Assembly: GCA_964658305.1 (NCBI GenBank)
Contig: OZ210885.1
Location: 1,550,001-1,614,000, forward strand
Direction of reading: 5' to 3'
DNA: 64,000 nucleotides
Origin: Leptogorgia sarmentosa
Lineage: Eukaryota
Part shown: positions 509 to 64,000 of the stretch, in pieces
Numbering within the stretch: position 1 is the first letter of the stretch
Layout: each line of letters opens with the position of its first letter
Translations under genes and position numbers: made by a program
The notes under the pieces: model-generated
Told to the model about the DNA's origin: nothing
Database searches by the model: none
Seen by the model: the letters and a program-made list of their open reading frames with translations, nothing else

Positions 509-3500
509 ATGGATATAAAAGTCTATTTGTTGGCCTTCTTCATTGCATATACACTTCGAGCAGGAATTCGAATTGTCGCTGAAGACGAAACTGCTGGGAA
601 AAAGAAAATTGTGAATTTTTGTTTTAACGCAAGTCTCGAGGGTATGTGTGCGCGCTGCTGTGGTAATTAACAAACATTTTTCGGCTGCGCAGTCGTTTGT
701 CAGACATTTGAATGAATTGCAATGTACCACCTAATCATGACGTCATTTCAATTTCGTAGGTTACAGACTAAATGTGACAGTTTTGACGACAGAGCTGGCT
801 CCTAATTGGCTTGCCTGTGTGATAGAATGTGTTACGGAGCCTTGCTGTCGATCAATCAATTATAAAAACACACTGAACTTACGGAATGAACCAAATTGTG
901 AAATGTTGCACAATGTGGTCTATAATAATTCTCAGAAATATTTGGAAAGGAATTGTTCTTATAACCATGTTTTTCTTAATAATCCGCCAAAGGTAAAAAT
1001 TACTTCCGGAATAAATCGTGGAACAATAAATGAGATATTTCATTTTATTGTCCGTATAATTTATAGGAATACAATGGAACCTGCTTTTCGAAGTTCGCAA
1101 GTGGCCGTACAAAAGGTGAGGAAATGTTTACTGGCTAAGACAGCCAAGCGCGATGTATTTAAAATTTGGTAATTTCATCTCAATTTCATCGTCAAGGTTA
1201 CATTGGTTGTGCTGTCACTTGCTGTTACTTTTCTTATTAAAATTTCTTATTAGCAAAGCACGAGGTCTGTACAGAAAATGATTGGACTGAGCTCTTTTCC
1301 GTTCAGACCTAGCCCGTAAGGCGAGCTGCACAAGCTCAATTTGACGATTAATTAATTAATTAGAGGATAATTCTGAAAAGTTGACTATTTGAAATTATTA
1401 TATACACAAGCGCTGGATATGAGCTATTCTGCAATCTGATTGGTTCTCCACTAGCAGGATATTAGCTCATATCCTGCTAGTACAGAAATGTAAACAAAAT
1501 GGCTGAAAGAGCGAAGCTGGAATTGAAGTTTTCAACAGTTAAAAACGTATTTGCGACTGATTTAATGAATAAAATTCAAGAAGTTTAGTTGTAAATGTTT
1601 ATTGTGCAGTTATGAATCTGGAAAACCGGACTCGACGCTGTAATATTCATCGCTTGACTGAGTTGGATCGCTTGTTGCTGTTTGTTGACATTTTACAACG
1701 GTAAAATTTGTGTTGTACTTTCAAATGCAGAAAAAAACAGCTGAAAACTGTTGAAATTTAAAACTAGCTACAGTTTAAACGAAACGTCGACTATTTTAAT
1801 TCCGTAACTGTTGTTTTTTCCGTGCTTTTTGGCGTGTATTTATCAAGTAAAACTGTTTTTGTAAATATGTCGATTTCAAAGCGATAGAACACTTTGAAAT
1901 TATATTCAGTTATTAACTAAAATACAAATAAATTTTGAAGTTGTTTTTGTCCAGCGCTTGTGTACATAATAAAACAGTTATTCTGCTCACTCTCGTCGTA
2001 TATGACTGATAGTCGACTCGGCGCTACGCGCCTCGTCGACTATCAGCACATATACGACTCGAGTTCGCAAAATAACTGTTAATTGGTCTTTTCACGCACA
2101 CGATGCATTTTTTAACACCGTATGGTACGTAACTCGTCTTATTATATGGACAGCGGTATTTTATTGAGAACTAAAACACTCGTAGAACTCATACGCCACT
2201 ACATCCGGGATATGGTGCGCGTATTTTCCGTATGTCACGCTTAGGGGTGACATAACCTTCCCGCCCTTTTCGCTGTTTACAAATGGCTTCTACTTCAAGG
2301 TTTGTGAATTTAAGCGATATTAGTACGTTTTGCGACGAACAATAAAGCTACAATAAACTACAATAAAGCGGTATTTCATAATCTATATTTACTAAAGTCT
2401 AATTTTAAAGCCATTAATTGTCGTGTTTTAGACTGCATGTTTGCATTAAAAGGGTAGTTGTTGTGTATTTATGTAACTATGAATAAGTCCATATAATAAA
2501 CGAACTATTTAAGCCATGTTTTTAAACAATGTCCGCATTATTTTATAGCTCATGTTTTCGAATCAGAGATATTGAAGAATGAGTCACTGGAATTTTCAAG
2601 AAAGCTTGGAGAATGGTTGAATAAACCAGGAAATTGGAATGTTTGTTGGCGAGGCACAAGAGATGGAATGAAGCATGAAGCATTTCACGCAGGATGTAAC
2701 GGGAAAATTCCAACTCTGACAATTGTTAAAGTTATCAAGAACAACAAAAGTCTCGTATTTGGAGGATATGCCACAGAATCATGGGCTGGAGGTAAGGTGG
2801 AAATTACAATAAGCAATTTTAAGCAAAAAATACCTAATTAGTTGGTATTGTTAGTTTTGTTTTCCTCAAATTGAAGTCCAAACTGTCCTAAACGCTGAAA
2901 TGGACACGACATCGATTGAAAATACATCCATGTATTGTTTGCTATCTGACATACAATTTTAGGCCTAAAAGAAGAAGATCGATTATAACAAAAATAATCC
3001 ACTGAGTCTACTGTCTAAGTCACAAATTTCATTAATTAAATTTTATTACGACTTGGATTGGCATGGCATTCAATCCTGACCAAAACTCATCTCAAAGACG
3101 GCTAAAGACAGGAATCTAGTCCGGCTGTGTTCTAATATTATTCGCTAAATCTACCCTATCCCAACCCTAATCCTAACCCTAACCTATATATATAATAATC
3201 TATGGAACACAGTTGGACTAGATTCCTGTCTTTAGCATGCAGCTATTTAATTTGTGTGTGGCTCCGTCACTTTTGAAATTTGTTTGAATGCCAAAATTTG
3301 AGATTTCGGGCTGAGAGGTTTTTTCGGGTTGGTCACATAATTTTGAAAACGTCTAAATGTGTACCTTTAACAAGTTGATTAGTTTCTTCGCAAGAAAATA
3401 TTGAAAAAGCAATTTTACAACAGTTGCACAACATGCAGCTCGTTTAGCGTCATTTTCGTATTGCTATAAATGCTCAAAGTTTAGTTATTGGGAAGTTTTC

Positions 3501-3925
3501 AAAATGTAAGAATCACATGCAGATATGGTTATTACAGATTCCTAGAGGAGCGCTGGACTATTATATTCTCCTAGCAGGATATTTTATTTTTTATTTTGAC
3601 AGAAGGTGCGAGTGGTATTGCTGCTCCAGGATCGTTTTTGTTTTCACTGCGAAATAACGATGATCTGCCACCTTTCAAAGCTCCACTAAAAGACGAGAAT
3701 AGCACCTACGCAATTTTCCAGTTACCCGGAGAAGGGCCAATTTTCGGCGGTGGTTATGATTTGTTTATTAGCATATCCGGATCCACGACAAAATCCAACG
3801 CAAATTTCGGTGTAACTTACCAAGCGCCACCTGAATATGCCATTGGTGAAGCAAAGACCCAATCCCTTCTCGCAGGAAGCTTTGAGTTCACACCTACAGA
3901 AGTTGAAGTTCTCTCTTTAGTTTAA
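509..3925 (+). CDS. Secreted PAN/apple-domain + TLDc-domain protein, copy 1 (5 coding exons)
   Basis: Exons 509-641, 760-992, 1067-1115, 2549-2791, 3603-3925, all GT-AG with consistent phase (1,0,1,1). Hydrophobic leader MDIKVYLLAFFIAYTLRAG. PAN pattern CVIEC..CCRSINY..CEML. TLDc motifs WRGTRDG..FHAGC, FGGY, SFLFSL, GPIFGGG, terminal EVEVL. Confidence 0.85.
1392..2082. mobile_element. Non-autonomous element with asymmetric subterminal inverted repeats and a long 3' hairpin
   Basis: ttattatatacacaagcgctgga (1395-1417) is inverted at 1950-1972. Imperfect hairpin 1973-2080 with apex ctcggcgctacgcgcctcg. Confidence 0.7.
3101..3236. mobile_element. Small TIR element (MITE) with internal telomere-like tract
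   Basis: About 33-bp inverted ends gctaaagacaggaatctagtcc.. / ..ggactagattcctgtctttagc enclosing accctaatcctaaccctaacc. Confidence 0.65.
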
Positions 3926-4974
3926 AACCTCACTGATCCTCTTTTGGTTAACAGAAACATACTTGGCGGACAAATTATAAAATAAATATAGTTTAACATA
4001 AGTCTTCAAAATATCTAAATTATAGTGTTACGTACAATTGTAAACTGATTTTAAAACATAATACCAACATTAATGTTTATATGATCGTCCAAAAGAGAAT
4101 TCCGTTGGGCAGAACACGAGTATCAAGCCATATAAATATACACACAACCCCTTCCCCCACACCCCCAAAATTAACGCTGCATGCTACACGCCCCGATTGT
4201 AAACTGACTCGACTCGTAAAAAAATGTGTAACTTTGTAACAAAAACTTTTACCTATAGAGACAATTTAGCTCCTTTTGAAGTTTTGCTGCTCTTTCATCT
4301 CTGCATTTAATTCCTAATTCGATTATTTTCATGGTCAATTACTACTCAGAAAACGTAAACAAAACATTATTCCTTCAAATTTCGTTCAAACGTATTAATT
4401 TTAATTGAATGCCGGGTTCTCATTGACAACATGCCATAAATACGAATTCACCGCCGTCATTATTTCGTTAACGTCAAAGCGCCGCACCGCAGGTTTGCTT
4501 AGCTAATAAAATGCGTTTCAGAGTCGACTACCTGTTTTTGCGCTAAAGCTGAACTGAATCTAGGGTAAACGCTTGCATTGTAAACTAGACTGAATATTTC
4601 CTTGCACGAAGCCATTACATCAATTAGCAGCAGCAGCAGTAGATTTATTCGACCTCCCCGTATAGAGCTTTTCAGGTTTAAATTACAATATGGTGTTATG
4701 AAATTTACAATTACATCCATAATGCATCAATAACTCTAAAAGTAAGTGTCTTTCAAGATTGAAAAAAAACCCTTTCCCAGCAGACAATTTTGCGAAATAT
4801 AAGAGAAAACAAACTCCGAAAATGAACATCTTGTAAACTCAAGATATGAGCTGTTATAAAAACAAAACACAATATTCAAGGTAATATTTCGACTCTATTT
4901 CAAAGTCATTGTCAAACCTATAACTAATTATTTACAAGCTTTCAAGGTTGAAATGTTTGAAAACTTCTCATGAA

Positions 4975-5390
4975 GACTTTTCTTAACCGCTTTCTTAAAT
5001 GGTGGTAAAGATTATAATTGTTTCTTCTTCTTCCAGCGTATTACAAAGCTTGCACTCTCTAGCAATGAAAGCGTGTTCAGTGTTTTTTTATACGACATAT
5101 TTGCGCAGTCTCGATTCGTCTTTGCTTCTTGTGTTATAAGCTGTCTTCTTAGCTACTACAAAATTATTACAGATATTCTGGTGCAAGATTCTTGATAAAC
5201 TGGTAAGTCATTACTGCAGCATCTCTTGGATAGAGTTTTTCAGGGACAGGAATCAGAGAATTTTTCAGAGCATTTTGGTTCTCCAGTAAATATGCGGGCA
5301 AAGCAAAGTTTTGAATATGTTGTAGCATTTGGATGTTCGACTTGGTTGTTGAAGACCAAATCTAGGACTTACTTAGGGTGTTTCCCAAGT
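4975..5390 (-). mobile_element. Decayed non-LTR retrotransposon (L2/CR1-like) ORF2 3' remnant
   Basis: Minus-strand fragments QHIQNFA, PVPEKLYPRDAAVMTYQFIKNLAPEYL and AFIARECKLCNTL resemble the post-RT C-terminus of LINEs. Interrupted by stops and frameshifts. Confidence 0.55.
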
Positions 5391-7680
5391 CTTTAACGTG
5401 ACCAACCGGTTTAAGAATTTTCTGGAAAGAATGGGACTATGTCGTCAAATGTCATATTTTCAGTACACGACGAAATTATGTCATAAAATAATGTTGTACA
5501 TGTGTTTTGGTGAGCACATAGCTCCAAAATTGGCAGCTACCGAACAGATATGACGACTTCATCAAACGGTTTTGACCAATCAAAACTCGGCTTAAATTAT
5601 TTTACTATAATATAAACAATAAATTGACAGCTGGTTCATATCTGCTGGCTTTGAATATTTAAATGCTCCAAAATAAAACATTTACTTTACCCTAATGCGG
5701 ACAGTTCATAAAACGTCAGTCTCATTTCACACCACCTGCTATTTCATACGAAACTTACTGCAAACTTTGACATCAAGCTAACTTCCGTAAGTTTATCGTG
5801 TTATTGGTTTTTACTTCATTCCAATGTATATACAGCAGTTAGTTTAGTGCGAACTTTCCAACATATATTTCTTGCTCGCAGGTTATTTGAACACTTTTAT
5901 AGTGTATACGTAGTTGACATAATAATATGAATGCATGCAGATGGCTGATAATGATTGCAAGTATCTACAGTGAAATTTTAGCGCCACTAATACTTGATAC
6001 CAGTGTGTTTGTGCGTATATAAAAATTTTGGAGTATATTCGAGTTCTTTAATATGAATCTTTTTTAAATTCCGTTTCACGTTTATATTAATCCATGCGAT
6101 CAAATTTGAAGTTTAAAAAAATAAATTATGTTAAACTAATTATGTTTCAGTTAAAGCCTGAATAACCAAAATATCAGCTCGTACTGAAGAACAGAAAATA
6201 TTAAGCTACATGCATTTTGATGAAAAATGATGTGAAAGATCGAACACGGCTGCCATGCAGCTGGCTTTTAATAAATATAATGAAAAATGGACTTTCGTTC
6301 ATGAAACATTTTTCTGTATCAGCGAATATTCATAAATTTTGAATATTCCTGCAGGTTTGTGAACACGAATAATTATTTTTTGAACATTTTCCCTCCCAAT
6401 TATATATAGACGTTAGCTGGGAACGCTAATGAAAATTACTCATATGCATTTATAAATTGGCAAATTCTGTTTTGTCGGTTCTGCCAAAGTGCAAAATTCA
6501 TATTTCATAATTGGCGTAATTTTTGTCAATTGCTTTGAAGCCTGAAAGCACTCAATCATCATCACAAACTGTGCTTTCTAGCTATTCCTAGCCCAAACAT
6601 TGCTAAAACAAAACGGACGAACAATAACATGCAGAGAGAATATGTAAACATAACAGCCTGTAGCAGTTGAGCACAAAATACGTTTCAGTTCCGTAGTTGA
6701 GCTAGGATTTCTAGACACTTTACTGAATTAATACATCTCAATTGTCCGAAGTTATTGATTTAGTTGAAAGACCAAATATGGGTCATCCTTCTGGAAGGTT
6801 TTGGGCTGCATGAGAATTCTTAGACAAACCTGTGTATCATTACGAAGAGAATTTGACACAGTCCGTCTTTCTTTTGATCAAGTAGTGACCAATGATTTGT
6901 TATACTGTAAGTAGAATTAATTCTTAGTTCGATATCCTGTCGCTGTTTGTAGCTACAGCTAACATGAGCATCGTTTCTATTGTGCATATTGCCAATATGG
7001 AAATATTACATCCGGGGATGTAACATGCACAAGACTGAATAGCACGAGTTATAAAACGAGCACTGGTCATACGAAGGCGTGATAAACTCGAGAGTTATTA
7101 CAGAGTTATTACACGAGAAACCATTACTTGAGACAATCGCAGTTTTCAGTTTCTCCTAGCTAAAGTTGAACACCGGGAGACTTTCCTTGCTTACTTATAT
7201 TTCACATCTTGCAATGATAACGGTTTGAACATTAAAGAAAAAGCTATACTATTATTTTATGCACGTACGTATATATTATATTATCAGTTATGTTGCATGT
7301 TGCATGCTTTAATAAAAGTATTTGGTATTTCACGTAGCCTCATGTGCTTTTTAAAAACACACAATGATATATATCAATTCTGGTCTTGTGATTGGAATAA
7401 AGCGCCCTACGCTTGTTTGTGAATAATTCAAACCACAAAACTGGTTGACACTTCCAACGTTTGAAGTGGAAGGGCAATAATCCATTCCCAGAAGTGAAGG
7501 AAACAATATAGCTAAGTATGCAGTCAAGAGGAATGCAGCGACGTTTTCAACCAACCAGTGAGCCAGGGCATGAATCACAGGCGTGTATGTATCTTAACTC
7601 TGACTTGATTGTTTGCTTCATAGGGAAGATAATAATCTGCCAGAATACAGTAAAAAGTGGTGGTTAGCTTGAAGGTAACG

Positions 7681-9957
7681 ATGCACATAAAGTTCCATTT
7701 GTTGATCCTTTTCATGGTGTATACGATACGAGCGGTAATTGTCGCTGACGAAAATGATAATAAGAATGAAGGAATGATAAATTTGTGTTACAACTCAAGT
7801 CTTGAGGGTAAGTAGCTATACCGACTGTGGAAATCGTTAGTTAAACCTTTGTCCATACTCGACTCTTACAGTAGTCGTGCCTCATACATTTTTCAAAAAT
7901 GTAACATTTGAATGAATAGCAATCATGTCGTTATTTTTATTACCCAGGTTACAGACTTAAAGTGACAGTTTTGGTGAAGAAATTGGTTTCTGATCGGTTC
8001 ACCTGTGTTATGGAGTGTGCCACAGAGCCATGTTGCCGCTCAATCAATTATAAAAAGACGCTGAACTTGCGGAATGAACCAAATTGTGAAATGTTGCATA
8101 ATCTGGTCTATAATATCTCTCAGGAACTTTTGGAAGCAAATTCTTCTTATAATCATGTTTATCTCGGTAATCCACGAAAGGTAAAAATATTTCACAACAT
8201 GAAATTGCTTATTTTGCTTCTGCACACACATGCATGCATGTCTAAGATTTTCAAAGACCTCAAATACCACTGTCTCGCTCTTCGAGTCTAATTTTTCTAT
8301 CATTTTCATGTGAGTAAATTAGTTGTTATTTATGGTTCATCTCCTCAAACAATAAAGAAAATTTTTTGCCTTGTGTAGGATTTTAACCAAACCTGCTTAC
8401 CTGAACCCAAAAGTCCCGATTTGAAAGGTGAGTCATGAGTGATCCATAGCCCTAACATTTTGTTTCCTACTTGGACCATTTTTAGTTTCTCTGAGTATAT
8501 AGCGAAAGAATAAGACAGGCATCCTTCATGTCATCATGTCTCATTATAAACAACAGATGTTTTCCTTTATTATTATCTAGTAATGGAATTAATTCCGTAA
8601 ATTTTCTTACGTTTATGTCTTGTATTGGTTGCTTGTAGAGTATTTCCACATATTTTCGGTAGAGTATTTCCATGTAGGCTATCGTTGAAATATTGGTAGC
8701 TGCACACGCTGCAAAAAATGATCAATTTTCTTAATAAGAAACAATTTAAATAAATTTGAGAGCCCATGCATGGTCTCCCTCAATTAAATGAACCTATTGA
8801 TTTGCTTCGAGCTCGCTCTTGTTTGATTTCATTCAGAAAATAGGAAACAGTAGCTTCTGCTACTCCATATAGTTATCCACATGTTAAAAATACTCTCAAC
8901 AGTCAACTTGATAGTTTGCCAATGGCTCTTTAACCAAGAAACCATTCACCACTAAACTATATTTAACCATGTTTTAAACACTGTGCTTATAGATCACGTT
9001 TTTGAATCAGAGATATTGAAGAATGAGTCACCGGAATTGTTAGGAAAACTTGGAGAATGGTTGAATAAACCGGGAAATTGGAATGTTTGTTGGCGAGGTA
9101 CAAGACATGGAATGACACCTCAATCTTTTCACGCAGGTTGTGACGGGAAAATTCCAACTCTGATGATTGTTAAAGTTATCACGAACAACAAAAGTCTCGT
9201 ATTCGGAGGATATGCCACAGAATCCTGGGCTGGAGGTTAGAATGAAAATATTACATCATAAAAAATTCTCCCCAACTGGAAAGCGAGACATTTTTAGTTT
9301 CGTTGTGTAGAAATGTATTATTTAGCGACAAATTTAAAGTGCCGATATATAAATGAACATGCAAGTAATACACCCAGATAATATCCCGTGGTAAACTGTA
9401 TCCCTCATGTCAGAATTCATTTTAATCTTTCTGATAGAAAATATTTTTTTCACTAATAGAATTTGTTTTTTTTACTTGCATCTGTGCACATGCATTCCAC
9501 TTCAAATATTAATTTTTCATATATTTCAATATTCAATATTTTTTAATACTAGAGAACAATAGGAGGACACTTTTCCTTTATCGCAATTAGACCCGATAAT
9601 TATGAAGTATGATAAAGAGTTTAACAGGAGATTTTTGTGTTTTTGACAGTCGGTGATACTCCTGCTCCAGGATCGTTTTTGTTCTCACTTCGTAACAATG
9701 ATGATCTGCCGCCTTTCAAAGCTTCGCTGAAGGACGAGAATAGCCCATTCGCAATTCAACGACAACCCAATAAGGGACCAGTGTTTGGATATGATTTGAT
9801 TATGATGAAGAACGAGGATAAGTATTCCGGCGCAGATTTTGGACTTACTTACCAAGCGCCAAGTGGCTACGAAAGTGGTGTAACAAAGACCCAATCCCTC
9901 CTCGCAGGAAGCGCTTCTTTCACGCCAACAGAAGTTGAAGTTTTATCTTTGAATTAA
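7681..9957 (+). CDS. Secreted PAN/apple-domain + TLDc-domain protein, copy 2 (5 coding exons)
   Basis: Exons 7681-7807, 7948-8180, 8379-8427, 8993-9235, 9650-9957, GT-AG, same phases as copy 1. Leader MHIKFHLLILFMVYTIRAV. PAN exon, 49-bp linker exon, TLDc split over two exons. Confidence 0.85.
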
Positions 9958-11329
9958 AACACGGATTATCATTTGAAACATACTGGTGCACAATTATAGA
10001 AAAGTATGTTTTGATTCTTATTCAAATTAACAATGATTAATCTCTTCTGCAGATTTATGCAGCTTGTTTATAACTGACTCATTATTTATCATTTATTATC
10101 CTACAGTGTTAAAAAAAAAATTTTAAAATGTTAAAAATGAGTATTTTCTTGCAAAATTTTATTTAACGAGGCACGTATATGGCCATGTTTACCTTCAGTT
10201 ATCGTTCACGTATATGTATAGAGTTCACTGCTGGCCTAAAAGTTTGACATTATGCATCGCCATTGCAGCCGTAACAACAATGGTGTCGTCCTTCTATGAG
10301 CAATTTCCAACTATCTGCTAGAATACACTGTATTTATTAAAACATCATAAATTGTATGTAGCCACCTTGTATAATTGAGTAACATTTTCTGTGTGTATCG
10401 TTGAAAAATGACCGACTCCTTTTGAATAATTTGACATAAACATTGATTTTTTGTTAATTTGCTGAAAACTGGGCTTTGTCCATAGATTTGTATAAAAAGA
10501 TGCATGAAGTTAAGATTATGGAATGATACGTGTTACCTAACGACATGATCACCACTAATTTAGAAAATATGATGTAAAATAGAAAGGGCGGGACAACATC
10601 AATTTCCAGAAATTTAAAATCATAATAATAAATTGTACACGGAAATCGGAATTGAACAAATACACTTGCATGACTACTAAAGTCACATGGCATCGTTAAT
10701 CGTTTCGTGTGCATGGTGATTATTGAGTTTTGTATTAAATTCATTGAAATCTAAATAATCTGGAATGATAACTTGGCCGCCATCTTAGGTTGCCCAGTCC
10801 CTTTTACAAAATTTGCCAAGAAAAAGCATTGAAAATGGATAAGCATGGGCATGTTTATATAAAGTTTTCATTCCAGATTACTTAGAGTTCAATATAATGG
10901 TTCAATTATCGAAAAAAGTTAGTTATTAAAAATTTGTTAGTCTTTCATGCGGAATATTTCTATGAAGTGCACGTACAAAGGAAACATTAAAACAATTCGG
11001 ATGGTACGTTGTTGAAGGGGCGATCTCCCCCACAATTGCTTTCATGACAATTCTCGTGAAAAGTCATTCCATTATTCTCACTTTTTTCAAAAAATAATAA
11101 CAGAAAAAAATAAATTGCCATCAAATGACGTTCCTGGTCATGGCAGGAGCTGATCTCAGATCCAGAAATTCTGGAGACAGTCTCTAGGCAATTTATAATA
11201 ATTATTTACCCATCAAAACCTCTTTGCCTTTGCAATGTCAATCGTCAGAGACAAATATCCAGATGCTGATACTGGGCTGCAAGGCCTTTAGAAGGCCTAA
11301 ACATTTTTTGAGGACACCCTGTACAGCGC

Positions 11330-31938: not shown

Positions 31939-32101
31939 TTTATTGTTGTTATGACTTCGTTCAAGAAGGGTATTTGGGGGTAGATGGGGCTAATGGGGCT
32001 ATTGTTTGGAGATGAAAAATTCGAATTCGGAATGGCGGACGTTACGCCAATCTTACGCGGATAAGATGGTAAAGTAGCGGACGGCAACATAGAATGATAT
32101 A

Positions 32102-46341: not shown

Positions 46342-46574
46342 AGGTGCCCTCCACTCATAATGTAAACAAATGCTTTGTTGACATTTTGAACAGCTATTTT
46401 TGTAAAATATTATAATACTAACAGCATATCTAACGCTGTTTTGGTTTGCTATGGTCATAAATGAATATAAACCAGAGTTTTGATTCAGAAAATGTTCGGA
46501 ACATTACAAATTTTTTGCAATATTATATCTGCGGGTCCCGATTTGTTATGCGCAGAACGGAGTGGACATCACCT
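46342..46574. mobile_element. Kolobok-like MITE with TTAA TSD
   Basis: ttaa|aggtgccctccactc ... gagtggacatcacct|ttaa. The paralogous site at ~54461 (gataattaagtttgg) is empty. Confidence 0.8.
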
Positions 46575-47202
46575 TTAAGTTTGGGGCAGCGAACGTAGTC
46601 GACGAAAGAACTTCTCCTGGGAGATCAGTTTCTAAAATCTTGATATGTCTAATGAGTTTTATGTGCCAAGAAAAACCCATTATGGACTGCTCCAAACTAC
46701 ACTATACATTTTGTTGTAGTTATGACTTGCTTAAAAAGTTGTAGTTTAATTTTTTCGTACGCCTACGCATGTAAAAATTGAAGTGCATTTTAAAGCTAGT
46801 TTCAATACAATCATATGAATAAATGTAAATCATCTCTCATACTTTAAATGATGTAGTGTGTTTCTAAAGGCATTTTATTAATAAAATGAAGTACAGAGGG
46901 ATTAATTTATTTCCACTTTCATTTTAAAAACGGATAACTGAAATGCAGCCTAAAGATTAAATAACTATGATAAATGATTCTCAGGAAAATCTGTATTTCG
47001 CGAAAATTAATTAATGCCCTTTTTCTATTTTCGATCTTCAAAATCGCAAAAATAAAGTCTCGCGAAATATGGCTTCGAAAAAATCGCGAAATAAACTATA
47101 CGCGCGAAATCAACTACGAATATAATCCACACGGCAGGCACAATAACACTCCTCCTTTTTTTTCTTTTGAAGGACTAACTACTTGAAAATTGGAAGGCAA
47201 CG

Positions 47203-51095: not shown

Positions 51096-51796
51096 CACTG
51101 AGCTATACTTAATATATCTGGAGATCGGGCTCTCCACTTTGAAGTGTCGCCAAAAACATGGCGGATTTTACGTCACACGTCCCCTATTCTCATGATGGTA
51201 ATTACTGACCACAGTTGAAGTGTGTGCAGGCGCCGTTTCCAACCCTCCCTGGATTTTACTGTACGATTTTATATATAAATATATACTGCATTGCTGTTTT
51301 GATATTTTTTCAAAGAATTGAGATAAAGTATTAAAATTCTCTTATATCTCAAAAATATATTGTTGTATTTGTCGATGTACGCGCCTATAAATACCGAACG
51401 CGATTGATTAAAGAGGACTTGACAAAGGAGTTGTAGCATCCGTAATTTATCTGAAATTAAATGTAGTTCAGCAAATAAGTGACCGACCGTCGCCAACTAT
51501 GTGTGCAAAAACGCGGCATGTTGATAATCAACAAAATTCAACGAAATATTGTTTTGAATTTAAAACTTTGACGTGATATTAGCTGGTATTTTAGTATTTT
51601 ATTTTCAGACAGGGGGGTGAGAAAACTGCTCTCTTTCGGCAATGTTATTTGGTCAGTGGTTAGTCCCCTGAAATAGGGGACTTACTACGTCATAATGACG
51701 TAAATTTGGCTAAAATCCGCCATGTCTTTGGCGACACTATTTTGTACGGCGTGGTATTACGACCCGATCTCCAGATATATTAAGTATAGCTCAGTG
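51096..51796. mobile_element. Recent non-autonomous DNA transposon, 34-bp TIR, 8-bp TSD (P/hAT-like)
   Basis: aattaccc|cactgagctatacttaatatatctggagatcggg ... cccgatctccagatatattaagtatagctcagtg|aattaccc. Empty site at ~59181. Confidence 0.9.
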
Positions 51797-51829: not shown

Positions 51830-52480
51830 CAGCCTCGTACCCAGGCGCTTCTTAGCTTAGAGAGATTAGCAAGAATCCAGATAAATACATAGAGATCGGG
51901 CGCCAGCGCGCAAGGGTTCTTGGGCAGGCGCGACGGAGGAAGCGCCTGGCAGAATATGCAAAAAACATGGAGGACGACGTGTCCATATTCATAAATGCAA
52001 ATGAGGAAATTGCTGTTCTTGATGAAATTGAAAGGCCAGTCCATCGAGCGGTACATTATTCCGAACGGTGTAATTTCTTCTTCCGAACTCCACGATGCTA
52101 TTGAAGCGAAATTTTTAAACGAATTGAAACACTGTAGTGTGTATGCGAAGCGAGATTATTTTGTCAGAATCGTCATAAAATCATAAGATGACAGTATAAA
52201 ACTACCTTCGAAAGATAATTCCTGGAGCGATCTTTCTAAATCATCCATATTTAAGTCAACCGGTCCGAGATTTTTCCAAAATTATCACATTCCGAAGCTT
52301 TTCAAACGCACATCATTTTTACAAAAGTGATAGACGGAAATTTGCATATTCTGCCAGCAGCTTCGCAACTCCGTCGCGCCTGCCCAGCAACCCTTGCGCG
52401 CTTGCGCCCGATCTCTATATAATATTAATCTGGATTCTTGCTAATCTTTCTAAGCTAATAAGCGCCTGGGTACGAGGCTG
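51830..52480. mobile_element. MITE with 9-bp TSD (Mutator-like); second copy at ~59217-59862
   Basis: ctattactc|cagcctcgtacccaggcgctt ... aagcgcctgggtacgaggctg|ctattactc, long imperfect TIRs. Confidence 0.85.
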
Positions 52481-55081
52481 CTATTACTCCCTATCTTTCT
52501 ACATACTAATTACTTCCGCCGCAAACGTTTCCCATAATAATTACTCCCGCCGCCATACGTGCGCGGTAATACTACTGTTCCATATAAGGCATTTTCATTC
52601 TCAGTACACCATGCACCTGCACTACACTGGAGACAACAACCGTGCAGCTGACATTTTGGTGAGTTAATAGTGCTATTAATTTTTCTTTTTATTTCACCTT
52701 GGTGTGTGGTTGCTTTACTAGATATAAAGTATTCGATCATGTTACTGCCAAACAGTTCTTGCTAGCGCGAATTTGAACACTTTAGCGATCGAAGCATGCA
52801 GCATGACAATTGAACTTGCCATAGCTATCACGTTCATCTATCTTTCTACAGTAAAACTGCTGCGCGTGCAGTGAATTCCAGTATCGCGATATCATAACGC
52901 TTTTAATTTGTGTGTGTATGTGTGTGCGCGTGCAGTGTGTGTGCTGCTATAATTATATGATTTTTACTGATAAGTATTAGCACAAAGCTTCGAATTTTTT
53001 CTTTCTCAGGCTTTAAATTATACAAGATCATATTATATAGTCAACGCGATCTTTAAAACGTCTTTAGCCTATAGATTGAATTAAAAATATTTTTTACATT
53101 TAATGAAAAAACTGTGAAACTTTTAAGGATGAAGTTTTAGAAATATAATTGACGATTGAACATAATTATTATAATTTCAGTATTTTTTCTTGAAACGTTT
53201 TTCTCATTAATTTTTGACAATTTTGCCGGGAGCATGTAGCGACGAAAACTTTAAGGCCTCTATTCTGGAAGTTACCGCTGCAGAATTTCTGATCTGCAGG
53301 GAAAAAACCTAATTAGTGTTTTCTTGCTTGCAATACAATAATTAAAATAGGAAAGATATATGAATTTGCCTCGACATGTGTAGCCAAAAAAATCAACAGA
53401 AATTGTTGTTAGTCGTGCTTCAAGTGAGGGGCGCACAATGTAAAAAAATAGAAAACAACACGCTTCACGGAACGTTTAGTCCTTTAGGCCGTTAAACCAG
53501 GCGAAAAATATTTATAATTTTACTAGGCGTGTGGTATCAATGTCTGTGCAGTTAACAGTGTTAGTGATAAGGGCGTCAGGTTGTAATGATACTGACAAGT
53601 AATTAACGACAAATCCAAACGACTATAATTGAAAATAAAAATGTCATTGAAGAAAACCAGTACAGTATATTGTAGCTACATACGATTCTCTACGCCCACA
53701 AAACACACGTACGTCATGGGAAAGATGAATGACATTGTAAACAAAGACAAAGTAAATATAATTTGCGAACCGACGCAGATGTCAATATTTTGCCATTAGG
53801 CTTGACAGAAAAACGAAATCGTTATGACTACACTGTCAAAATTTGGAAGCAAAAGCTGCATATGTGTGCATGTTACAAGTGCAATTGTAAATATAAACGT
53901 GCGTATGCTTAGGCTTTGTTGACAATCGTTTCTTTGGATATTTCCCGCGGTTAATATATATAGGTCATAAATTTCGCTTAGTTCATGATAATGATAGAGG
54001 TATTGTGGAATGACGGCAAACTGTATTTTATAATTAATTGATTATATTAACTCGATCCATAATTTTCAGAAATTTATTGTACCTACGTTTAAGTATTTAA
54101 TTTATGCAAAGAAATATAGAATAGCTATTATACGGCGGTGCGAAGATACGAAATTTATCTTCGAGTAGTGAAAACAGTATTCACTGTGGCGGGAAATTAT
54201 CACGTGATTGATGTCTTCACCAGTGCAGATATGAAAAATATCTCATTGTATATTTTTCTGTACCTGTATTAATTATATTATAACAATAACAAAGTCGGGC
54301 CAAAACCATATTTCCGCCCAAGAACATCAAATGTATTACTATTACACTGAACAGACATTCGACCTTAGCAACAAAACACTTGGCACTTGACAACGCGCAC
54401 GTTCTAATGTTGAAACGTTGATATGCTTGTGACGTCATTAAACACTCAGACTGAATGCGCGATAATTAAGTTTGGAATAGCGAACGTAGTCGACGGAAGT
54501 CTAAATGAGTAATGTCGAAATTTCTAATGAATTTTATGTGACAAGAAAAACCCATTTATGCATGGACTGCTCCAAACTACACTATAAGCAAAAGTAAATC
54601 TTTTTCTATCTCTTGATACAATGTTAATAATTATTATTGTGTGTAAAATGTCTAAAAATTATAATAGAGCACTGCAGCTGAGTTCATTGATGATCTGGAT
54701 GGTTCGTTTGCCAAATATTTATTATTTTAAAATTGAAATAGTCTGTAATTGCACCCCCCTTTTCCGCCTTTTTTCATTATTTCCTACAACTTTTCGCAAC
54801 TAAACTCAGAATAAATAACTTTAACTCAGGGCAACAATTTGGTATTGCGCGTGCTCCCTAAGCAAAATTCATGCAGTGGAATTAAACAGCTAAGAGATCT
54901 TTATGCCTAAATATCTTGATTTGTTTCATCATATTACTATATATCTACATACGGACTCAACAAATATCTAAATTAATAACCTGAACCCATGAATTCAGGA
55001 ATGTTTTGTTTTCTTCAAAACTGAATGTGAAAAATTAACATTTTAGATACCAAATCGCGGGAAAGAAGACGCAGGTGCAAA

Positions 55082-58031
55082 ATGGCAAATTTTGGGAGAG
55101 TTCTTTCCGTCCTCATGTACCTGCTGTTGGTACACAGATGTTATTCCATGAGATCAAGTACTTGGTTCAAGCTCGTCATTTCAGGTTATTCAATTTCCCT
55201 TAGCATTGTCTGCAGTTAGATTTATCCGAAATAAATGCAAAAGGACTTGGTATTACTGAACGGAAATTTCTCCCAACACCGGTCAATAAAGCAGGGTTGA
55301 AAACAACAAAACTCGATCCCTGCAAACAAAATGTGTGCGAACTTCAAATTTTTAACTTTTGTGTTCTATGAACGATAAGAATGGATGGGAAGTGTGAATT
55401 CTTAGAATTTTTCTGTCAATAAAGGATGTTGAAAATTACGAATCTTCAGTTCTTGAGAAGCAAAAATTCGGTTTGGAAACGTTATATATTACGAATTGCT
55501 GTCAGCAACCAAGTGGTTTAAGAGGGGAGAAGTTGCACGAAAATTTTGATCGGAATTAAACATAAAACTGCACCATTAACATCGATATTTTTCTTCCAAT
55601 TCTGACAGGTCATCGCCTCACTGATAATGTAATCCGTGAACTCAGTACACTGAGTCTTTTGGAGTGTACTTTACACTGTATGAGAAAACCTTCTGAATGC
55701 AAATCAGTCAACTACAGAGTTAAACAACGTCAAGATTATTCCATAAATTGTCAACTCATTAATGCCACAAAAACAACACATCCTCAGAATTTGTTGGAAG
55801 ACAGAAACTACGACAACCATGAACGCATAATAACAACGGTAAATCTTCGTAGATTTTGCACTAACATTATATGAGATACAGTGGCGTCGGATACAGTGGA
55901 AACCAGATTTTTCCGAAACAAATATTTTACATTTACCAGTGCCTGACAATGAAGCGGGGGTGTTACGGTATTTTGCACGATTAAGGGCATGGTCACGAGT
56001 GTTTTAGAAATGTGTCCATGGCCTGCTTGCGTTATTTCCCGCATTTTAACGACCTAAACCCGATATCGAAACTGTAGACATATTAACTTGCATTAGACAA
56101 ATTAAGTGGCAAGATATGTGCAACTAATTATTGAAAAATAATAAATTTGCGTGAAGTTTTGGAGGATAAATTAGTCTTTTCGTTCATGTAGGAAAATAAT
56201 GGAAGCTCTTTGCCAAAGTTCCTAAACAGCAAAATAGAAGGTGAATGTCTAAAATGTGATAACGTTTTGATTGGTCTTCTCACTTTTAGTTAGTAGCTAC
56301 TTAAAGATTTGATCATGAATGATTTTAGAACTCTTTTTCAATTCTAGTGAGGGTTTGTTTCCCTGCATAACCTAAGTTTAGTTATGTGAAATTATAAAAA
56401 ATAGTCTCATTTGAAATCATCATTGCTATTAGTGCATGCCAGAAATCTCTATAAAACAATATAATTATTTTGTGATATCCTATACCTTAACCACACCGTT
56501 TTGTACAAAATCTTTGCTATTTGGGCCGTATATCTTCCCGCAGGGCCGTACACAGAGGGGGGACAGGGGGGGCAGGTGCCCCCCCCCAGGGAAAATTCAA
56601 CGGTTCGTTTTTATTATTGATATCCACTGAAATTCTCTCACATTCCTCCCAAAGAAAGACCACTGCCCCCCCAGTTAAAAATTCCTGTGTACGGCCCTGT
56701 CTTCCCGCATGATTTTTTTCTTTATTCAATACATCTGGCTTTTTGCAAAATCTTCCACACATCCAGCTGGGGCCGGTTGTTAAAAGTCGGGGCTATGACT
56801 ACTGCATAGTGATTTTATTCGACCGTTGTAGAAATCCTCAAAAGCTATAAAATTTCAGATATGGGCCTGGCAATAGACAATAGTTGAAAGAAGTGGCTAC
56901 ATTTAAATATATCAAGGCTAAGTCTGAATCAACAGGCTGTTTTAAAAATTTGGATAACATTTTCCAAACTTCGAACAACCGATCGACCAACCCCTGGTTA
57001 ATTTCTTTTATGACATCATGCGAGGTGCTTTCTTCAAACGTCACACTAAACTTAGGTTGGGAAGCTAACCTTGGATATTCAAAAGCAATATACTACTTCC
57101 CTCTCGGAAAAATGCAGAAAAGTTGAGATAATTATGTTATTTATGTTATTTATGTGTATTCAGCGAAATTTGATATAAAATTTCCATTCTCCATTCAACA
57201 GTACGTAAAAGTTGTGCTGATTGGCTGAATAAAAGTGCAGCCACAAATACAACACTTCAGGATGGTGTCTATTCTATAAACCCCGAGGGACAGAACAACA
57301 CAAATTTCACTGTCTGGTGTGACATGCATACAGATGGAGGAGGTTGGACAGTGTTCCAGAAACGAAAAGACGGATTGCAAAACTTTAATCGCAATTGGTC
57401 ATCGTATGAAAACGGGTTTGGTGAAAGCGACAGTGATTATTGGCTTGGTCTACATAGAATTTACACCATGATGAAAGATCACAGCCAAATTCTAAGAGTT
57501 GATCTTCAAGATTGGGAAAATAACAGCCGATACGCTGTGTATGGCGACTTTTCAATTGGGAGTGAAGATGTTGAGTACCAAATAAAAATTGGAAGATATT
57601 CAGGTGGAAAATTTTTGATTATATTCAAAATCAATATCTTTCCCTTTGCCACTTAACAACACTTACGACAAACGGGGGCAGGGAATTTGCTCCTCTTTGC
57701 CTTTGCCATAGAGGGCAGAATTTTAAACTGGCAAATAATTATTGTCTTTTCATTTCCCGTAGGTGATGCAGGAGACTCTCTCGACTATCACAGTGGTTGG
57801 AAATTCAGCACTTACGATAACGATAACGACAACGATGACGGCCGTAACTGTGCATCTGTGTTTCAAGGTGGATGGTGGTTTCGTAGGTGTCTGGAAAGTA
57901 ACCTGAATGGTCAGTACATCCAAGGAGGACGTCATTCAGGCAAAGCAGGCACAGGAGTTCAATGGCAGAAATTTACAGGCGATCAATATTCCTTGAAATA
58001 CACCGAAATGAAAATACGACCAAAAAACTAG
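55082..58031 (+). CDS. Secreted PAN-B + FReD protein
   Basis: Exons 55082-55184, 55609-55838, 56192-56240, 57202-57603, 57763-58031 in phase 1,0,1,1. Leader MANFGRVLSVLMYLLLVHRCYS. PAN GHRLTDNVI..CTLHCMRKPSECKSVNY..CQLI. Complete FReD. Confidence 0.9.
56541..56699. mobile_element. hAT-like MITE with 8-bp TSD
   Basis: tcttcccg|cagggccgtacacag ... ctgtgtacggccctg|tcttcccg. Single tcttcccg at the paralogous site ~48396. Confidence 0.9.
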
Positions 58032-61000
58032 AACATTCCAGTTAATGAATATTTGTACCACAAATGGGGAAAATGTAGAGAGTTGTAGCTTTTCATTTTA
58101 TTACAAGCCCATCAATGGAACTTTCCCCTTTTAGACGAACTTTAGAATTGGGTGAATTCATCATCACGGCTGGAAGGAGGATATCATTGGATATCATTAA
58201 TTCAGTAGAATCGCGAGGTTTGTTTTGCAAAATTACGTTAAATGTGAAAATTACACAGTTATTCAAATTTGCGAATTTTCCATTGTATACTTTTGTATTT
58301 CGCACGGCGATTAAGAGATAATCAGATTTCGAATGTGACTATCACAGTTTGGCGTACATAAATCAACAGTATAGAAAATTTCCAAACTTTAAATGCCTGT
58401 ATTTCAAAACGATTACGAATTTTGTAACCAAAAAATGTCCAGTAATGAATTTTTTCAATTCAAAAGTTCGTCTAAAACGGGAAATGTCCATTCGGATGGT
58501 CGGAAACTTCATTTCATTACATGATTGATATAGCAGTAGCATTAGGAATAAGCATTACGAAGATCTTGAAATGGGTGTCCAGATCGTTTAGGCTATTGGC
58601 TATAGTTAAATTTAGGCTTGATGTTATTCGTTGGGGACATTTCATAAGATAGATTCACATAAAGTCACAATTAGGTACAAGTATAATTATTGTAGGCTAT
58701 TAACGACGACTCGACTTGTCCGGAAAATATCAAACTAACGTTCCATAGCGAGTATAATCATCCAGTTACTGGCTTGATTGAAATAGTTTGTAGACCAATC
58801 TTTATTAAATATTATTAATTAAAAAGTGTGTTCGTGACAGGCCGTTCATCTTTCAGCATTAGTTAAACGCAGTAATTTTCATAAAAACTAATCTAACATA
58901 CTAAGAAGTAAGCTACCAATGTTTTTACGATTAATAAACTTGTTACAAGGACATAAAGTCTCATTCATTATTCCCCGGGTTATTGCCACCATAATATACT
59001 ATCACAACTTTAATTTACTATCGTATTACTCAGTATCTGTCTGCATACTAATTCCTCGCTATCCTTCTACAAGCTAATTACTTCCCGGCGCTCTTTATAA
59101 CCCCATTGTGCACGCCCGCTTCATTAAAATACCCTCGCTATCTTTCTCCATAAATTAACGCTAACTCCTCTTTGCATACTAATTACCCACTATCTGTCTG
59201 CATCTATTACTTGATCCAGACTCGTACCCAGGCGCTTCTTAGCTTTGAGCGCGATTAGCAAGAATCCAGATAAATATATAGAGATCGGACGCGAGCGCGT
59301 AAAGGTTCTTGGGCAAGCGCGACGGAAGAAGCACCTGGCAGAATATGCAAAAAACATGGCGGACGACTTGTCCATATTCATAATGCAAATAAGGGAATTG
59401 CTGTTCTTGATGAAATTGACAGGCCAGTCCATCGAGCGGTACCGATTATTCCGAACGGTGTAATTTCTTCTTCCGAACTCGACGATGCTATTGCAGCGAA
59501 ATTTTTAAACGAATTGAAACACTGTAGTGTGTATGCGAAGCGTTATTTGTCAGAATCGTCATAAAATCAAGATGACAGTATAAAACTACCTTCAAAAGAT
59601 AATTCCTGGAGCAATCTTTCTAAATCATCCATATTTAAGTCAACTGGTGCGAGATTTTTCCTAAATTATCACATTTTGAAGCTTCGCAAACGCACATCAT
59701 TTTTTACAAAAGTGATAGACAGAAATTTGCATATTCTGCTAGGCGCTTCGCAACTCCGTCGCGCCTGCCCAAGAACCCTTGCGCGCTCGCGCCCGATCTC
59801 TATATATTTATCCGGATTCTTGCTAATCTCACTAAACTAAGAAGCGCCTGGGTACGAGGCTGCTATACTCCCTATCTTTCTACATGCTAATTACTTTCGC
59901 CGCTAACGTTTCGCATACTAATTACTTCCGCCACCATACGTGCGCGGTAATACTACTGGTTCATATAAGGCATTTTCATTCTCAATACACCGCCTGCACT
60001 ACACTGGAGACAACAACCGTGCAGCTGACATTTTGGTGAGTTAATAGTGCTATTTTCTTTTTATTTCACCTTGGTGTGTGGTTGCTTTACTAGATATAAA
60101 ATATTATGTTACTGCCAAACAGTTCTTGCTTGCGCGAATTTGAACACTTTAGCGATCGAAGCTTGCAGCATGACAATTGAACTTGCCGTGGCTATCAGGT
60201 TAATCTATCTTTCTACAGTAAAACTGCATGCGCGTGCAGTGAATTCCAGTATCGCGATATCATAACACTCTTAATTTGTGTGTGTACGTGTGTGCGCGTG
60301 CAGTGTTGCTATAATTATATGATCTTTACTGATAAGTATATTAGCTACAAAGCTTCGTGACTATATAATATTACCTTGTATAATTTAAAGTCTGAGAAAG
60401 AAAACAATTGAAGACTGAAGTCTACGCGATCTTTAAAACGTCTTTAGCCTATAGATTGAATTAAAAATATTTTTTACATTTAATGAAAAAACTGTGAAAC
60501 TTTTGAGGACGAAGTTTTAGAAATATAATTGACGATTGAATTTATTATAATTTCTGTATTTTTTCTTGAAACGTTTTTCTCTTCAATTTTTGACATCATG
60601 TTTTTGTGCGCAACAAATGAAGCCTTGCTGTATAATGATTATATATTAGAGACCTTTAGCTTCACGTTTACGACAAACCGCTGGCCGCGAACGGCAAATT
60701 TCCAACTCAACCTCGGGTTAGTTGTTAAAAAATGGTAGCTTTTGGGAATTAGGACAAATTGTGCAATAAACTTTTTTGGCGTTTGCCGGGAGCATGTATG
60801 GCGACGAAAACATTAAGGCCTCTATTCATGAAGTTACCACTGCAGAATTTCTGAACTGCAGGAAAAAAACCTAATGTTGTCTTGGTTGCAATACAATAAT
60901 TAAAATAGCAAAGTTATATGAAACCAGGCGAAAAAATATTTATAATTTTATTAGGCGTGTGGTATCAATGTCTGTGCAGTTAACAGTGTTAGTGATAAGG

Positions 61001-61735
61001 GCGTCAGGATGTAATGATACTGACAAGTAATTAACGACAAATCCAAACGACTATAATTGAAAATAAAAATGTCATTGAAGAAAACCAGTACAGTATATTG
61101 TACATACGATTCTCTAAGCCCACAAAACACACGTACGTCATGGGAAAGATGAATGACATTGTAAACATAGACAAAGTAAATATACTTTGCGAACCGACGC
61201 AGATGTCAATATTTTTCCATTGGGCATGACAGAAAAAGGAAATCGTTATGACTACACTGTCAAAATTTGGAAGCAAAAGCTGCATATGTGTGCATGTTAC
61301 AAGTGCAATTGTAAATATAAATGTGCGTGTGCTTTGGCTTTGTTGACAATCCTTTCTTTGGATATTTCGCGCGGTTAATATATATAGGTCATAAATTTCG
61401 CTCAGTTCATGATATTGATAGAGGTATTGTGGAGTTACGGCAAGCTGTATTTTATAATTAGTTGATTAATGATGATGATTAAACTCGATCCATAATTTTC
61501 AGAAATTTATTGTACCTACGTTTAAGGATTCAATTTATGCAAAGAAATATAGAATATTATGCGGCAATGCGAAGATATGAAATTTATCTTCGAATAGTGA
61601 AAACAGTATTCACTGTGGCGGGAAATGATTACGTGATTGATATCCTCACCAGTGCAGATATGGACAATATCTCATTGTATATTTTTCTGTATCTCTATTA
61701 TATTATAACAATAACAAAGTCGGGCCAAAAACATA

Positions 61736-62350
61736 TTTATGCCCAAGAACATCAAATGTATTACTATAACACTGAACAGACATTCGACCTTAGCAACAAA
61801 ACACTTGGCACTTGACAACGCCCACGTTCTAATGTTGAAACGTTGATATGCTTGTGACGTCATTAAACACTCAGACTGAATGCCCGATAATTAAGTTTGG
61901 AATAGCGAACGTAGTCGACGAAAGTCTAAATGAGTAATGTTGAAATTTCTAATGAGTTTTATTTGACAAGAAAAATCCATTATGGACTGCTCCAAACTAC
62001 ACTATAAGCAAAAGTAAATATTTTTCTATCTCATGATGATATGATGCCTTTATGCCCAAGAACATCAAATGTATTACTATAACACTGAACAGACATTCGA
62101 CCTTAGCAACAAAACACTTGGCACTTGACAACGCCCACGTTCTAATGTTGAAACGTTGATATGCTTGTGACGTCATTAAACACTCAGACTGAATGCCCGA
62201 TAATTAAGTTTGGAATAGCGAACGTAGTCGACGAAAGTCTAAATGAGTAATGTTGAAATTTCTAATGAGTTTTATTTGACAAGAAAAATCCATTATGGAC
62301 TGCTCCAAACTACACTATAAGCAAAAGTAAATATTTTTCTATCTCATGAT
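61736..62350. repeat. Direct tandem duplication of ~302 bp (period 313)
   Basis: 61736-62037 is repeated apparently identically at 62049-62350. Single copy in the other units. Confidence 0.9.
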
Positions 62351-62811
62351 ACAATGTTAATAATTATTATTGTGTGTAAAATGTCAAAAAATTATAATAG
62401 AGCACTGCAGCTGAGTTCATTGATGATCTGGATGGTTCGTTTGCCAAATATTTATTATATTAAAATTGAAATAGACTGTAATTGCACCCCCCCTTTTCTG
62501 CCTTGTTTCTTTATTTCGTACAACTTTTCGCAACCAAACTCGGAATAAATAACTTTAACTCAGGGTCACAATTTGGTATTACGCGTGCTCTCCAACCAAA
62601 AGGCATGCAGTGGAATTAAACAGCTAAGAGGTCTTCATGCCTAAATATCTTCATTTGTTTCATCATATTACTATATGTACATAGGGACTCAACAAAGATC
62701 TTAATTAATAACCTGAACCATGTAGTCTGGAATTTTTTTTTCATAACTGAATGTGAAAAATAAAAATTTTAGATCGATACCAAATCGCGGGAAAGAAGAC
62801 GCAGGTGCAAA

Positions 62812-64000
62812 ATGGCAAATTTAGGGAGAGTTCTTTCCGTCCTCATGTACCTCCTGTTGGTACACAGATGTTATTCCATGAGATCAAGTACTTGGTTTAA
62901 GCTCGTCATTTCAGGTTATTCAATTTCCCTTAGCATTGTCTGCAGTTAGATTTATCCGAAATAAATGCAAAAGGACTTGGCATTTCTGAAAGAAAATTTC
63001 TCCCAACACCGGTCAATAAAGCAGGATTGAAAACAACAAAACTCGATCCCTGCAAACAAAATGTGTGCGAACTTCAAATTTTTAACCTTTGTATTCTATA
63101 AACGATAAGAATGGATGGGATCGAAGTGTGAATTCTTAGAATTTTTCTGTCAATAAAGGACTTTCTAAATTCCTTGATGTTGAAAATTACGAATCGTGAG
63201 TTCTTGAGAAGCAAAAATTCGGTTTGGAAATGTTATATATTACGAATTGCTGTCAGCAACCAAGTGGTTTGAAGGGGGAGAAGTTGCACGAAAATTTTGA
63301 TCGGAAATAAACATAAAACCGCATCCATTAACATCGATATTTTTCTTCCAATTCTGACAGGTCATCGCCTCACTGATAATGTTATCCATGATCTCAGTAC
63401 ACTGAGTCTTTTGGAGTGTACTTTACACTGTATGAGAAAACCTTCTGAATGCAAATCAATCAACTACAGAGCTAAACAACGTCAAGATTATTCCATAAAT
63501 TGTCAACTCATTAACGCCACAAAAACAACACATCCTCAGAATTTGTGGGAAGACAGAAACTACGACAACCATGAACGCATAATAACAACGGTAAATCTTC
63601 GTAGATTTTGCACTAACATTATAAGAGATACAGTGGCGTCGTGGAAAGTGTTCAACAGGGGGACACAAAACCAGATTTTTCCGAAACAAATATTTTATAT
63701 TCAGTGCCAGTACCTGACAATGAAGCGGGGGTGTTACGGTATTTTGCACGACTAAAGGGTATGGTCACGAGTGTTTTAGAAATGTGTCCATGGCCTGCTT
63801 GCGTCATTCCCGCATTTTAACGACCTGAACCTGATATCGAAACTGTAGACATATTAACGTGCATTATGCAAATTAAGTAGCAAGACATGCGTAACTTATT
63901 ATTGAAAAATGATAAAGTTTGCGTGAAGTTTTCGAGGATAAAGTAGTTTTTTTCGTTCATGTAGGAATCTAATGGAAGCTCTTTGCCAAAGTTCCTAAAA
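62812..64000 (+). CDS. PAN-B gene, third unit, partial (FReD exons expected beyond the window)
   Basis: Exons 62812-62914, 63361-63590 and 63965->64000, near-identical to the 55082 gene with open frame. Confidence 0.85.

Follow-up and report, generated by a model that had tools for sequence, protein, structure and literature searches.

We analyzed a 64,000-nucleotide stretch of the octocoral Leptogorgia sarmentosa (assembly GCA_964658305.1, contig OZ210885.1, positions 1,550,001 to 1,614,000 of the forward strand), which we refer to as the window, and all coordinates below are positions within it. The window is eukaryotic DNA with 36% GC, and it carries five genes, G1 to G5, in which a PAN head of one of two kinds (PAN-A or PAN-B) is followed by a tail that is either a TLDc domain or a fibrinogen-related domain (FReD). 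G1 and G2 form one cluster and G3 to G5 another, separated by about 37 kb that holds unrelated genes. Each complete gene consists of a signal exon, a PAN exon, a micro-exon, and two tail exons:

509-3925, + strand: G1, 326 amino acids; signal exon 509-641, PAN-A exon 760-992, micro-exon 1067-1115, TLDc exons 2549-2791 and 3603-3925 (alternative acceptor 3606)
7681-9957, + strand: G2, 319 amino acids; signal exon 7681-7807, PAN-A exon 7948-8180, micro-exon 8379-8427, TLDc exons 8993-9235 and 9650-9957
47203-49664, + strand: G3, 345 amino acids; signal exon 47203-47302, PAN-A exon 47414-47649, 28-bp micro-exon 48173-48200, FReD exons 48832-49233 and 49393-49664
55082-58031, + strand: G4, 350 amino acids; signal exon 55082-55184, PAN-B exon 55609-55838, micro-exon 56192-56240 (without cysteine), FReD exons 57202-57603 and 57763-58031
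62812-64000, + strand: G5; signal exon 62812-62914, PAN-B exon 63361-63590, micro-exon starting at 63965 and cut by the end of the window

The models use canonical GT..AG sites, and their splicing is predicted. The frames of G1-G4 are open, without stops, and the intron phases are 1,0,1,1 in all four complete genes. Pfam PAN_1 matches the second exon of all five genes (E 1.6e-3 to 1.7e-7; four above the curated cut-off, G1 below it), Fibrinogen_C matches the FReD exons in 4/4 cases (E 1e-24 to 1e-37), and TLD matches three of the four TLDc exons, with no match for exon 5 of G2. An N-terminal hydrophobic stretch is found in every gene (best 9-residue Kyte-Doolittle mean 2.6-2.7), hydropathy gives no clear later transmembrane segment in any of the five, and the products are predicted to be secreted. 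The same three head pieces are joined at the same places in RefSeq and other gene models of relatives, and thus the splicing of G1-G5 is indirectly supported. At the level of sequence, we consider the five modelled exon chains confirmed. An initial annotation of this DNA had proposed a five-gene scaffold with phases 1,0,1,1 and the combinations PAN-A+TLDc (twice), PAN-A+FReD, and PAN-B+FReD (twice, once partial). The scaffold stands, as four complete genes and a cut one, and the models and Pfam matches reproduce the combinations.

DNA contigs from runs X1-X3 (one sample at most, possibly the window's own source and not independent evidence) cover 30/30 bins of 300-10300. In the G2 region there are contigs at 8073-8618 and 8668-9030, and in G1, contigs from all three runs bridge intron 3 without its high-copy repeats (joints 1392-2081 and 2135-2501). 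The repeats in this intron (1302-2500) are of very high copy, and two stretches, of 688 and 365 bp, are missing from one contig in each of the three runs, which suggests an insertion polymorphism. The signal exon of G3 (47203-47302) is 33 nt shorter than that of G1, and a close homolog, protein call P0001, has the longer form.

The most direct evidence on how these genes were assembled comes from comparing G3 with G4. G3, G4, and G5 stand in tandem units of 7-8 kb, in which the following parts can be told apart:

44154-46706 (G3), 52594-54586 (G4), and 59975-62319 (G5), + strand: upstream flank common to G3-G5, by alignment
46707-48000, + strand: G3 head cassette (upstream DNA, exon 1, intron 1, exon 2, and the 5′ part of intron 2)
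54587-56000, + strand: G4 head cassette (PAN-B), not homologous to its G3 counterpart
48042-51095, + strand: G3 downstream shared part (3′ part of intron 2, micro-exon, intron 3, FReD, and 3′ flank), homologous to 56069-59188 in G4

In windows of 200 alignment columns, the identity between G3 and G4 is mostly 0.8-0.98 in the flanks (about 90%), and it falls to 0.38-0.49 across the cassette, where the best local score is 25 against a shuffled mean of 25.2. Homology ends at 46706/54586, upstream of the ATG, and it resumes in intron 2 at about 48000/56000, becoming firm from 48042/56069. The right break thus lies in phase-0 intron 2, at about 47990-48042 in G3 and 56000-56069 in G4. The alignment indicates that one lineage exchanged 1.3-1.4 kb comprising the start codon, the signal exon, and the PAN exon, and retained the upstream flank, the micro-exon, and the FReD tail. 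The simplest reading of the direction is that PAN-A+FReD came first, and that PAN-B then replaced the head in the ancestor of G4 and G5. The micro-exons of G3 and G4 share the same DNA origin, as their flanking introns align.

As for a dedicated recombination system, we found no inverted-repeat pair at the cassette ends, and the window shows only three of the four head-by-tail combinations. Movement of the cassette by a transposon finds no support here: inverted-repeat elements are near, not at, the breakpoints. Four such elements (46342-46574, flanked by TTAA; 51096-51796; 51830-52480; and 59217-59862) resemble non-autonomous DNA transposons, and two of them sit where tandem units meet their neighbors. 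The G4 cassette opens with a 180-bp segment that recurs inverted at 43424-43603 (aligned as 54581-54757 against 43434-43603), and near the start of the G3 cassette, 46771-46903 recurs at 18068-18201. The start of the shared upstream flank has a conserved donor-like GTGAGT at 44214, 52658, and 60035. A non-coding first exon common to G3-G5 is only a lead, since this donor ranks about 320 of 3455 under a matrix built from 16 local sites, and the upstream acceptor in G4 is weak.

The two kinds of head are quite distinct. PAN-A (G1-G3) and PAN-B (G4, G5) have 18-20 of about 75 residues in common and no DNA similarity. Within PAN-A, the PAN exons of G1 and G3 are the closest, with 212/233 identical nucleotides (synonymous divergence, dS, 0.24), compared with 188/232 (dS 0.55) for G1 and G2; and yet G1 and G3 have different tails, while G1 and G2 both have TLDc. 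For the tails, identity in exon 4 is 219/243 nt for TLDc in G1-G2, and 385/402 for FReD in G3-G4. The head tree groups G1, G2, and G3 with support of 97/98 (21 rows) and 92/96 (17 rows), and G1 with G3 with 97/91 and 97/93. In the 17-row tree and in the approximately unbiased (AU) tests, G4, G5, Xe_PTX, and Dg_NEC3 were dropped as long branches. The AU test rejects a single clade of FReD-tailed PAN-A heads from three species (p 0.004), and between the G3 FReD and the FReDs of PAN-A proteins from Dendronephthya and Paramuricea identity is only 44-45%, as against 61% within the latter pair; head/tail joins have therefore arisen anew more than once. Phase-1 intron 3 brackets the tail change, which is too old to map. 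The initial annotation is thus supported on TLDc and FReD as alternative C-terminal modules, given that G1 to G3 share head and micro-exon and differ in tail, and also on recombination within introns, with the right break of the head swap inside intron 2 and the tail change bracketed by intron 3.

What is then the role of the micro-exon? In G1, G2, and G4 it measures 49 bp; in G3 a 21-bp deletion leaves 28 bp. The homology of this linker, which had been claimed from the sequence, goes beyond chance: with the first nine residues of G1 as query, the five micro-exons take ranks 1-5 among the 3754 AG-preceded, stop-free 9-mers in the window. The pairing of G2 with G4 and G5 is weak, showing no DNA similarity above shuffles (z ~0). 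A cysteine codon in the micro-exon is common to G1, G2, and G3, and it is serine in G4 and G5. We counted cysteines, and built trees, using 16 named proteins out of 154; most of the 125 profile matches are single-exon calls. The micro-exon cysteine is present in 15/15 named octocoral homologs that reach that exon, a cysteine in exon 1 in 11/11 that cover the end of exon 1, and the two together in all 10 that span both; G4 and G5 have neither. The two would likely form a disulfide, possibly the outer, apple-type bond that closes the domain. The micro-exon is best read not as a docking hub but as the last, C-terminal piece of the PAN-A head, because its cysteine tracks that head and goes where PAN-B replaced PAN-A. 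The proposal of an independent shared hub for swapping is not supported, for that reason and also because one of the two inferred swaps lies before the micro-exon and the other after it.

A fold comparison, resting on the PAN-A-type homolog P0062, puts the other end of the head in exon 1. The predicted model of this head-only protein (predicted local distance difference test score, pLDDT, 80.5) matches PAN/apple structures over residues 28-111, with Z 10.0-10.2 and root-mean-square deviation 2.4-3.3 over 75-79 residues against the HGF N-domain, the factor XI apple domain, and the plasminogen PAN domain. In the model, the first PAN strand is encoded in the signal exon, so that the PAN fold begins within the exon 1 part, and exons 1 and 2 would travel as one unit because of it. 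Foldseek ranks a galactose-binding parasite lectin first for the P0062 head, with a weak E of 1.6e-3. An ESM Atlas search gave generic PAN clusters only, and a phmmer search of P0018 against the PDB gave EGF only.

The PAN-A head reaches well beyond this window. All the named protein matches are octocorals: Dendronephthya gigantea and Paramuricea clavata (both Malacalcyonacea), and Xenia sp. In them, the PAN-A head precedes FReD (XP_028411120.1, CAB3988571.1), EGF+TLDc (XP_028415686.1, XP_028416458.1), a short FReD-like domain with a further, unassigned part (XP_028395829.1, XP_028393895.1), F5/8C (CAB4006545.1, XP_046855987.1), and pentraxin/LamG (XP_028398842.1, XP_046863989.1); it also occurs before two unassigned tails, and alone. 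A further Dendronephthya protein, XP_028408882.1, has a TLDc of the same clade behind a different PAN-like head. We did not count it as PAN-B, because its head prefers PAN-B (E 5e-6) over PAN-A (E 7e-4) only weakly. The description of these genes as a locally recombining family is too narrow, because in three other octocorals this head is found with five or more Pfam-defined tail types. Going by these gene models, head/tail mixing is octocoral-wide and long-running, and the window holds two instances of it. A bolder extension, which we find quite unlikely, is an octocoral-wide combinatorial library of secreted recognition proteins, in which the PAN head and a fixed phase-1 junction take interchangeable tails (FReD, TLDc, F5/8C, pentraxin, and others), swaps segregate within species, and TLDc acts as a lectin-like extracellular binder.

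The explanation that we favor, with a probability of roughly 0.7, is that these are tandem-duplicated octocoral genes whose heads and tails likely recombined twice within introns after duplication. An ancestral PAN-A head (signal exon, PAN exon, and micro-exon) would have changed tail across phase-1 intron 3, between TLDc and FReD. The PAN-A+FReD unit would then have duplicated, and a PAN-B cassette would have replaced exons 1-2 in the ancestor of G4 and G5, the right-hand break falling in phase-0 intron 2. With its likely exon-1 partner gone, the cysteine of the micro-exon would have been lost afterwards. The products would most likely be two-part extracellular binders, a PAN domain with a ligand-binding tail.

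Several observations weigh against this explanation. The joins within the genes are predicted splicing, and the G3/G4 junctions are known from the assembly alone. The disulfide is deduced from the co-occurrence of the cysteines and not from a structure, and the PAN core in the fold comparison ends about 5 residues before the micro-exon cysteine. The search for a PAN-B donor gave 3 matches among 16 candidates, all of them single-exon calls without tails; the same low-power search found no PAN-B+TLDc gene. As for the tail change, the AU test rejects a single clade of TLDc-tailed heads only weakly (p 0.033, borderline), and it does not reject G1 and G2 as sisters (p 0.337), so that the tail swap fits more than one order of events. 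Furthermore, dS between G1 and G2 is 0.23 in TLDc exon 4, compared with 0.55-0.60 in the PAN exon and exon 5, and it is possible that gene conversion of exon 4 gave the same pattern.

Alternatively, the micro-exon could be a selected universal adaptor, through which the locus recombines heads and tails at a raised rate and so diversifies recognition proteins. The micro-exon is indeed present in all five genes, it outlasted the head replacement in G4/G5, where it still has an N-glycosylation sequon, two swaps fall within 64 kb, and FReD exon 5 of G3-G4 shows a non-synonymous divergence (dN) of 0.148 for a dS of 0.161 (small counts). We nevertheless give the adaptor little credence: its cysteine tracks the PAN-A head in every homolog examined, the breaks are in the introns on either side of it, only one of them beside a tail, and the PAN-B+TLDc combination is missing, albeit from a weak search. 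The replacement could also have run in the opposite direction, with an originally PAN-B FReD unit, and G3 taking its PAN-A head from a G1-like donor. This would agree with the G3 head nesting among the TLDc-tailed heads of the window, and with the summed contig depth over the bin of the G1 PAN exon, which is several times that of neighboring bins (not a copy number) and suggests more donors elsewhere. On the other hand, the G3 micro-exon, which is the same DNA as that of G4, keeps the cysteine common to G1, G2, and the outgroups, and thus the opposite direction needs that cysteine to have been regained, or kept without a partner. In addition, introns 2 and 3 of G1 and G3 have no similarity, while the G3 and G4 introns are similar. 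We consider the opposite direction improbable.

There is also the question of whether the assembly itself is at fault, and either G3 was joined chimerically or G5 is a haplotype of G4 that was left uncollapsed. G4 and G5 are near copies (92-97% identical; 223/230 nt in the PAN exon), the region at 43-64 kb is known from the assembly alone, and upstream of G5 there is a perfect direct repeat of 302 bp (61736-62037/62049-62350), either a very recent duplication or an assembly artifact. A chimeric G3, however, would take two false joins 1.3 kb apart, and its micro-exon has its own 21-bp deletion together with a cysteine that suits its head. Protein call P0001 matches G3 via exon 2 into intron 2 (84/93 amino acids), stopping before the junction, and the PAN-B+FReD combination holds on G4 alone. 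An artifact seems to us very improbable.

As for what the tails may do, the FReD has its best PDB matches in FIBCD1 and ficolin-2. Aligned to ficolin-2, it keeps the acidic calcium-binding loop and both loop cysteines. The histidine that follows the second loop cysteine in ficolin-2, which presumably has a role in acetyl binding, is leucine in G3 and G4. The FReDs of these two genes are identical at 69/88 residues in exon 5 and at 121/133 in exon 4, and the divergence of exon 5 would fit diverging ligand loops. For the TLDc, a predicted model of homolog P0037 (pLDDT 72.1; 1 of 5 models good) matches only TLDc structures at E < 1e-3, with NCOA7 at a Foldseek E of 3e-6, and the tail is, as modelled, a true TLDc fold. 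The TLDc tails have a conserved cysteine pair and several N-glycosylation sequons. A phase-1 intron splits the TLDc in G1 (2792-3602) and G2 (9236-9649), and it is absent from the single-ORF (open reading frame) homolog calls P0032-P0034, P0036, and P0037. Unless those calls come from transcripts, it may have been gained in G1/G2 or lost in the five calls. The TLDc proteins studied so far bind the V-ATPase from the cytosolic side, and we would not expect this binding to apply to a secreted TLDc.

For the role of the proteins, recognition of non-self or of glycans has in our view a little under an even chance, and residence in the matrix or skeleton is less likely but a serious contender. The literature has elements of both. 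In Nematostella, fibrinogen-related proteins (FREPs) are described as having greatly multiplied, with a link to immunity or venom, ten PAN/apple proteins have varied partners, and the matrisome table has six TLDc proteins, three of them detected by mass spectrometry in the mesoglea proteome, with peptide counts of 16, 16, and 5 (PMC12549020). An octocoral skeletal proteome includes FReD proteins (PMC11959691).

One of the closest known systems is class 1-1 exon shuffling of extracellular modules (Patthy; PMC8001218). Its extracellular domains are bounded by phase-1 introns, and the genes described here likewise have a phase-1 intron after the signal exon. Another likeness is the EGF between head and TLDc in the Dendronephthya homologs. 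The tails start at a phase-1 intron, and exon 2 with the micro-exon is flanked 1..1, but the PAN fold starts in exon 1; and the G3/G4 swap replaced a terminal part via a phase-0 intron, whereas a symmetric module would have been inserted. A second comparison is with domains gained after duplication, when exons of neighboring genes are joined (PMC2926785); there, too, duplication is followed by a new head/tail join in a tandem array. The difference is that here both cassette flanks are still alignable, and the event is mapped to within tens of bases on the left and about 60 on the right. Tandem duplication is pervasive in corals (PMC10236652). PAN is reported together with FReD in the molluscs Biomphalaria and Lottia, and invertebrate FReDs/FREPs are similarly secreted proteins in which a binding module at the N-terminus is combined with a fibrinogen domain at the C-terminus (PMC7588048). 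Unlike in ficolins and FREPs, the N-terminal part here is PAN only, with no collagen, IgSF, or evident coiled-coil oligomerization stalk.

The studied TLDc proteins (OXR1, NCOA7, TBC1D24, mEAK7) bind V-ATPase (PMC8608904). The octocoral ones resemble them in their Pfam TLD match and TLDc fold, and they differ in having a signal-like N-terminus, the cysteine pair, and the sequons. Extracellular TLDc is also found in Nematostella, where none of the six TLDc rows is annotated with PAN (PMC12549020). Sponges have shuffled recognition clusters, as in the sponge aggregation factor cluster (PMC5400394), which has other domains; our genes give no evidence for allorecognition, high allelism, or RNA editing. 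The main texts and some supplements that we searched, with incomplete coverage of subscription papers, do not describe this octocoral family, nor PAN+TLDc. The family is apparently undescribed, and the mechanism is already known.

The window has other features. A multi-exon gene of the sulfotransferase family lies at 14621-17432 (+; Pfam Sulfotransfer_1/3, E 1e-3 to 2e-5), and a tandem repeat array with strong strand skew at 19300-19610. On the − strand there are a MORN-repeat exon at 31726-31989 (E 4e-12) and a P-loop GTPase ORF at 35202-36014 (MMR_HSR1 E 6e-9, weak AIG1), possibly an immune-type GTPase, with another ORF at 34523-34897. A cysteine-rich repeat ORF at 40798-42471 (+) has a signal-like start, a downstream transmembrane-like ORF ending in a PPSY motif, and no convincing Pfam match.

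These results are of limited surprise: molluscs have PAN+FReD, extracellular TLDc proteins are on record in Nematostella, and the mechanism belongs to the textbooks. Most cases of domain shuffling are reconstructed from ancient events, with introns that can no longer be aligned. Here the G3/G4 flanks align at about 90%, and thus the breakpoints and their consequence, the loss of an unpartnered cysteine, are open to direct study. The family places TLDc, which has been studied almost only as a partner of the V-ATPase, in the slot of known lectin-type domains, and G1 and G3, with heads 86% identical, are a matched pair for asking what an extracellular TLDc binds. The G3/G4 case would be a clear and recent example of animals building new proteins from old parts.

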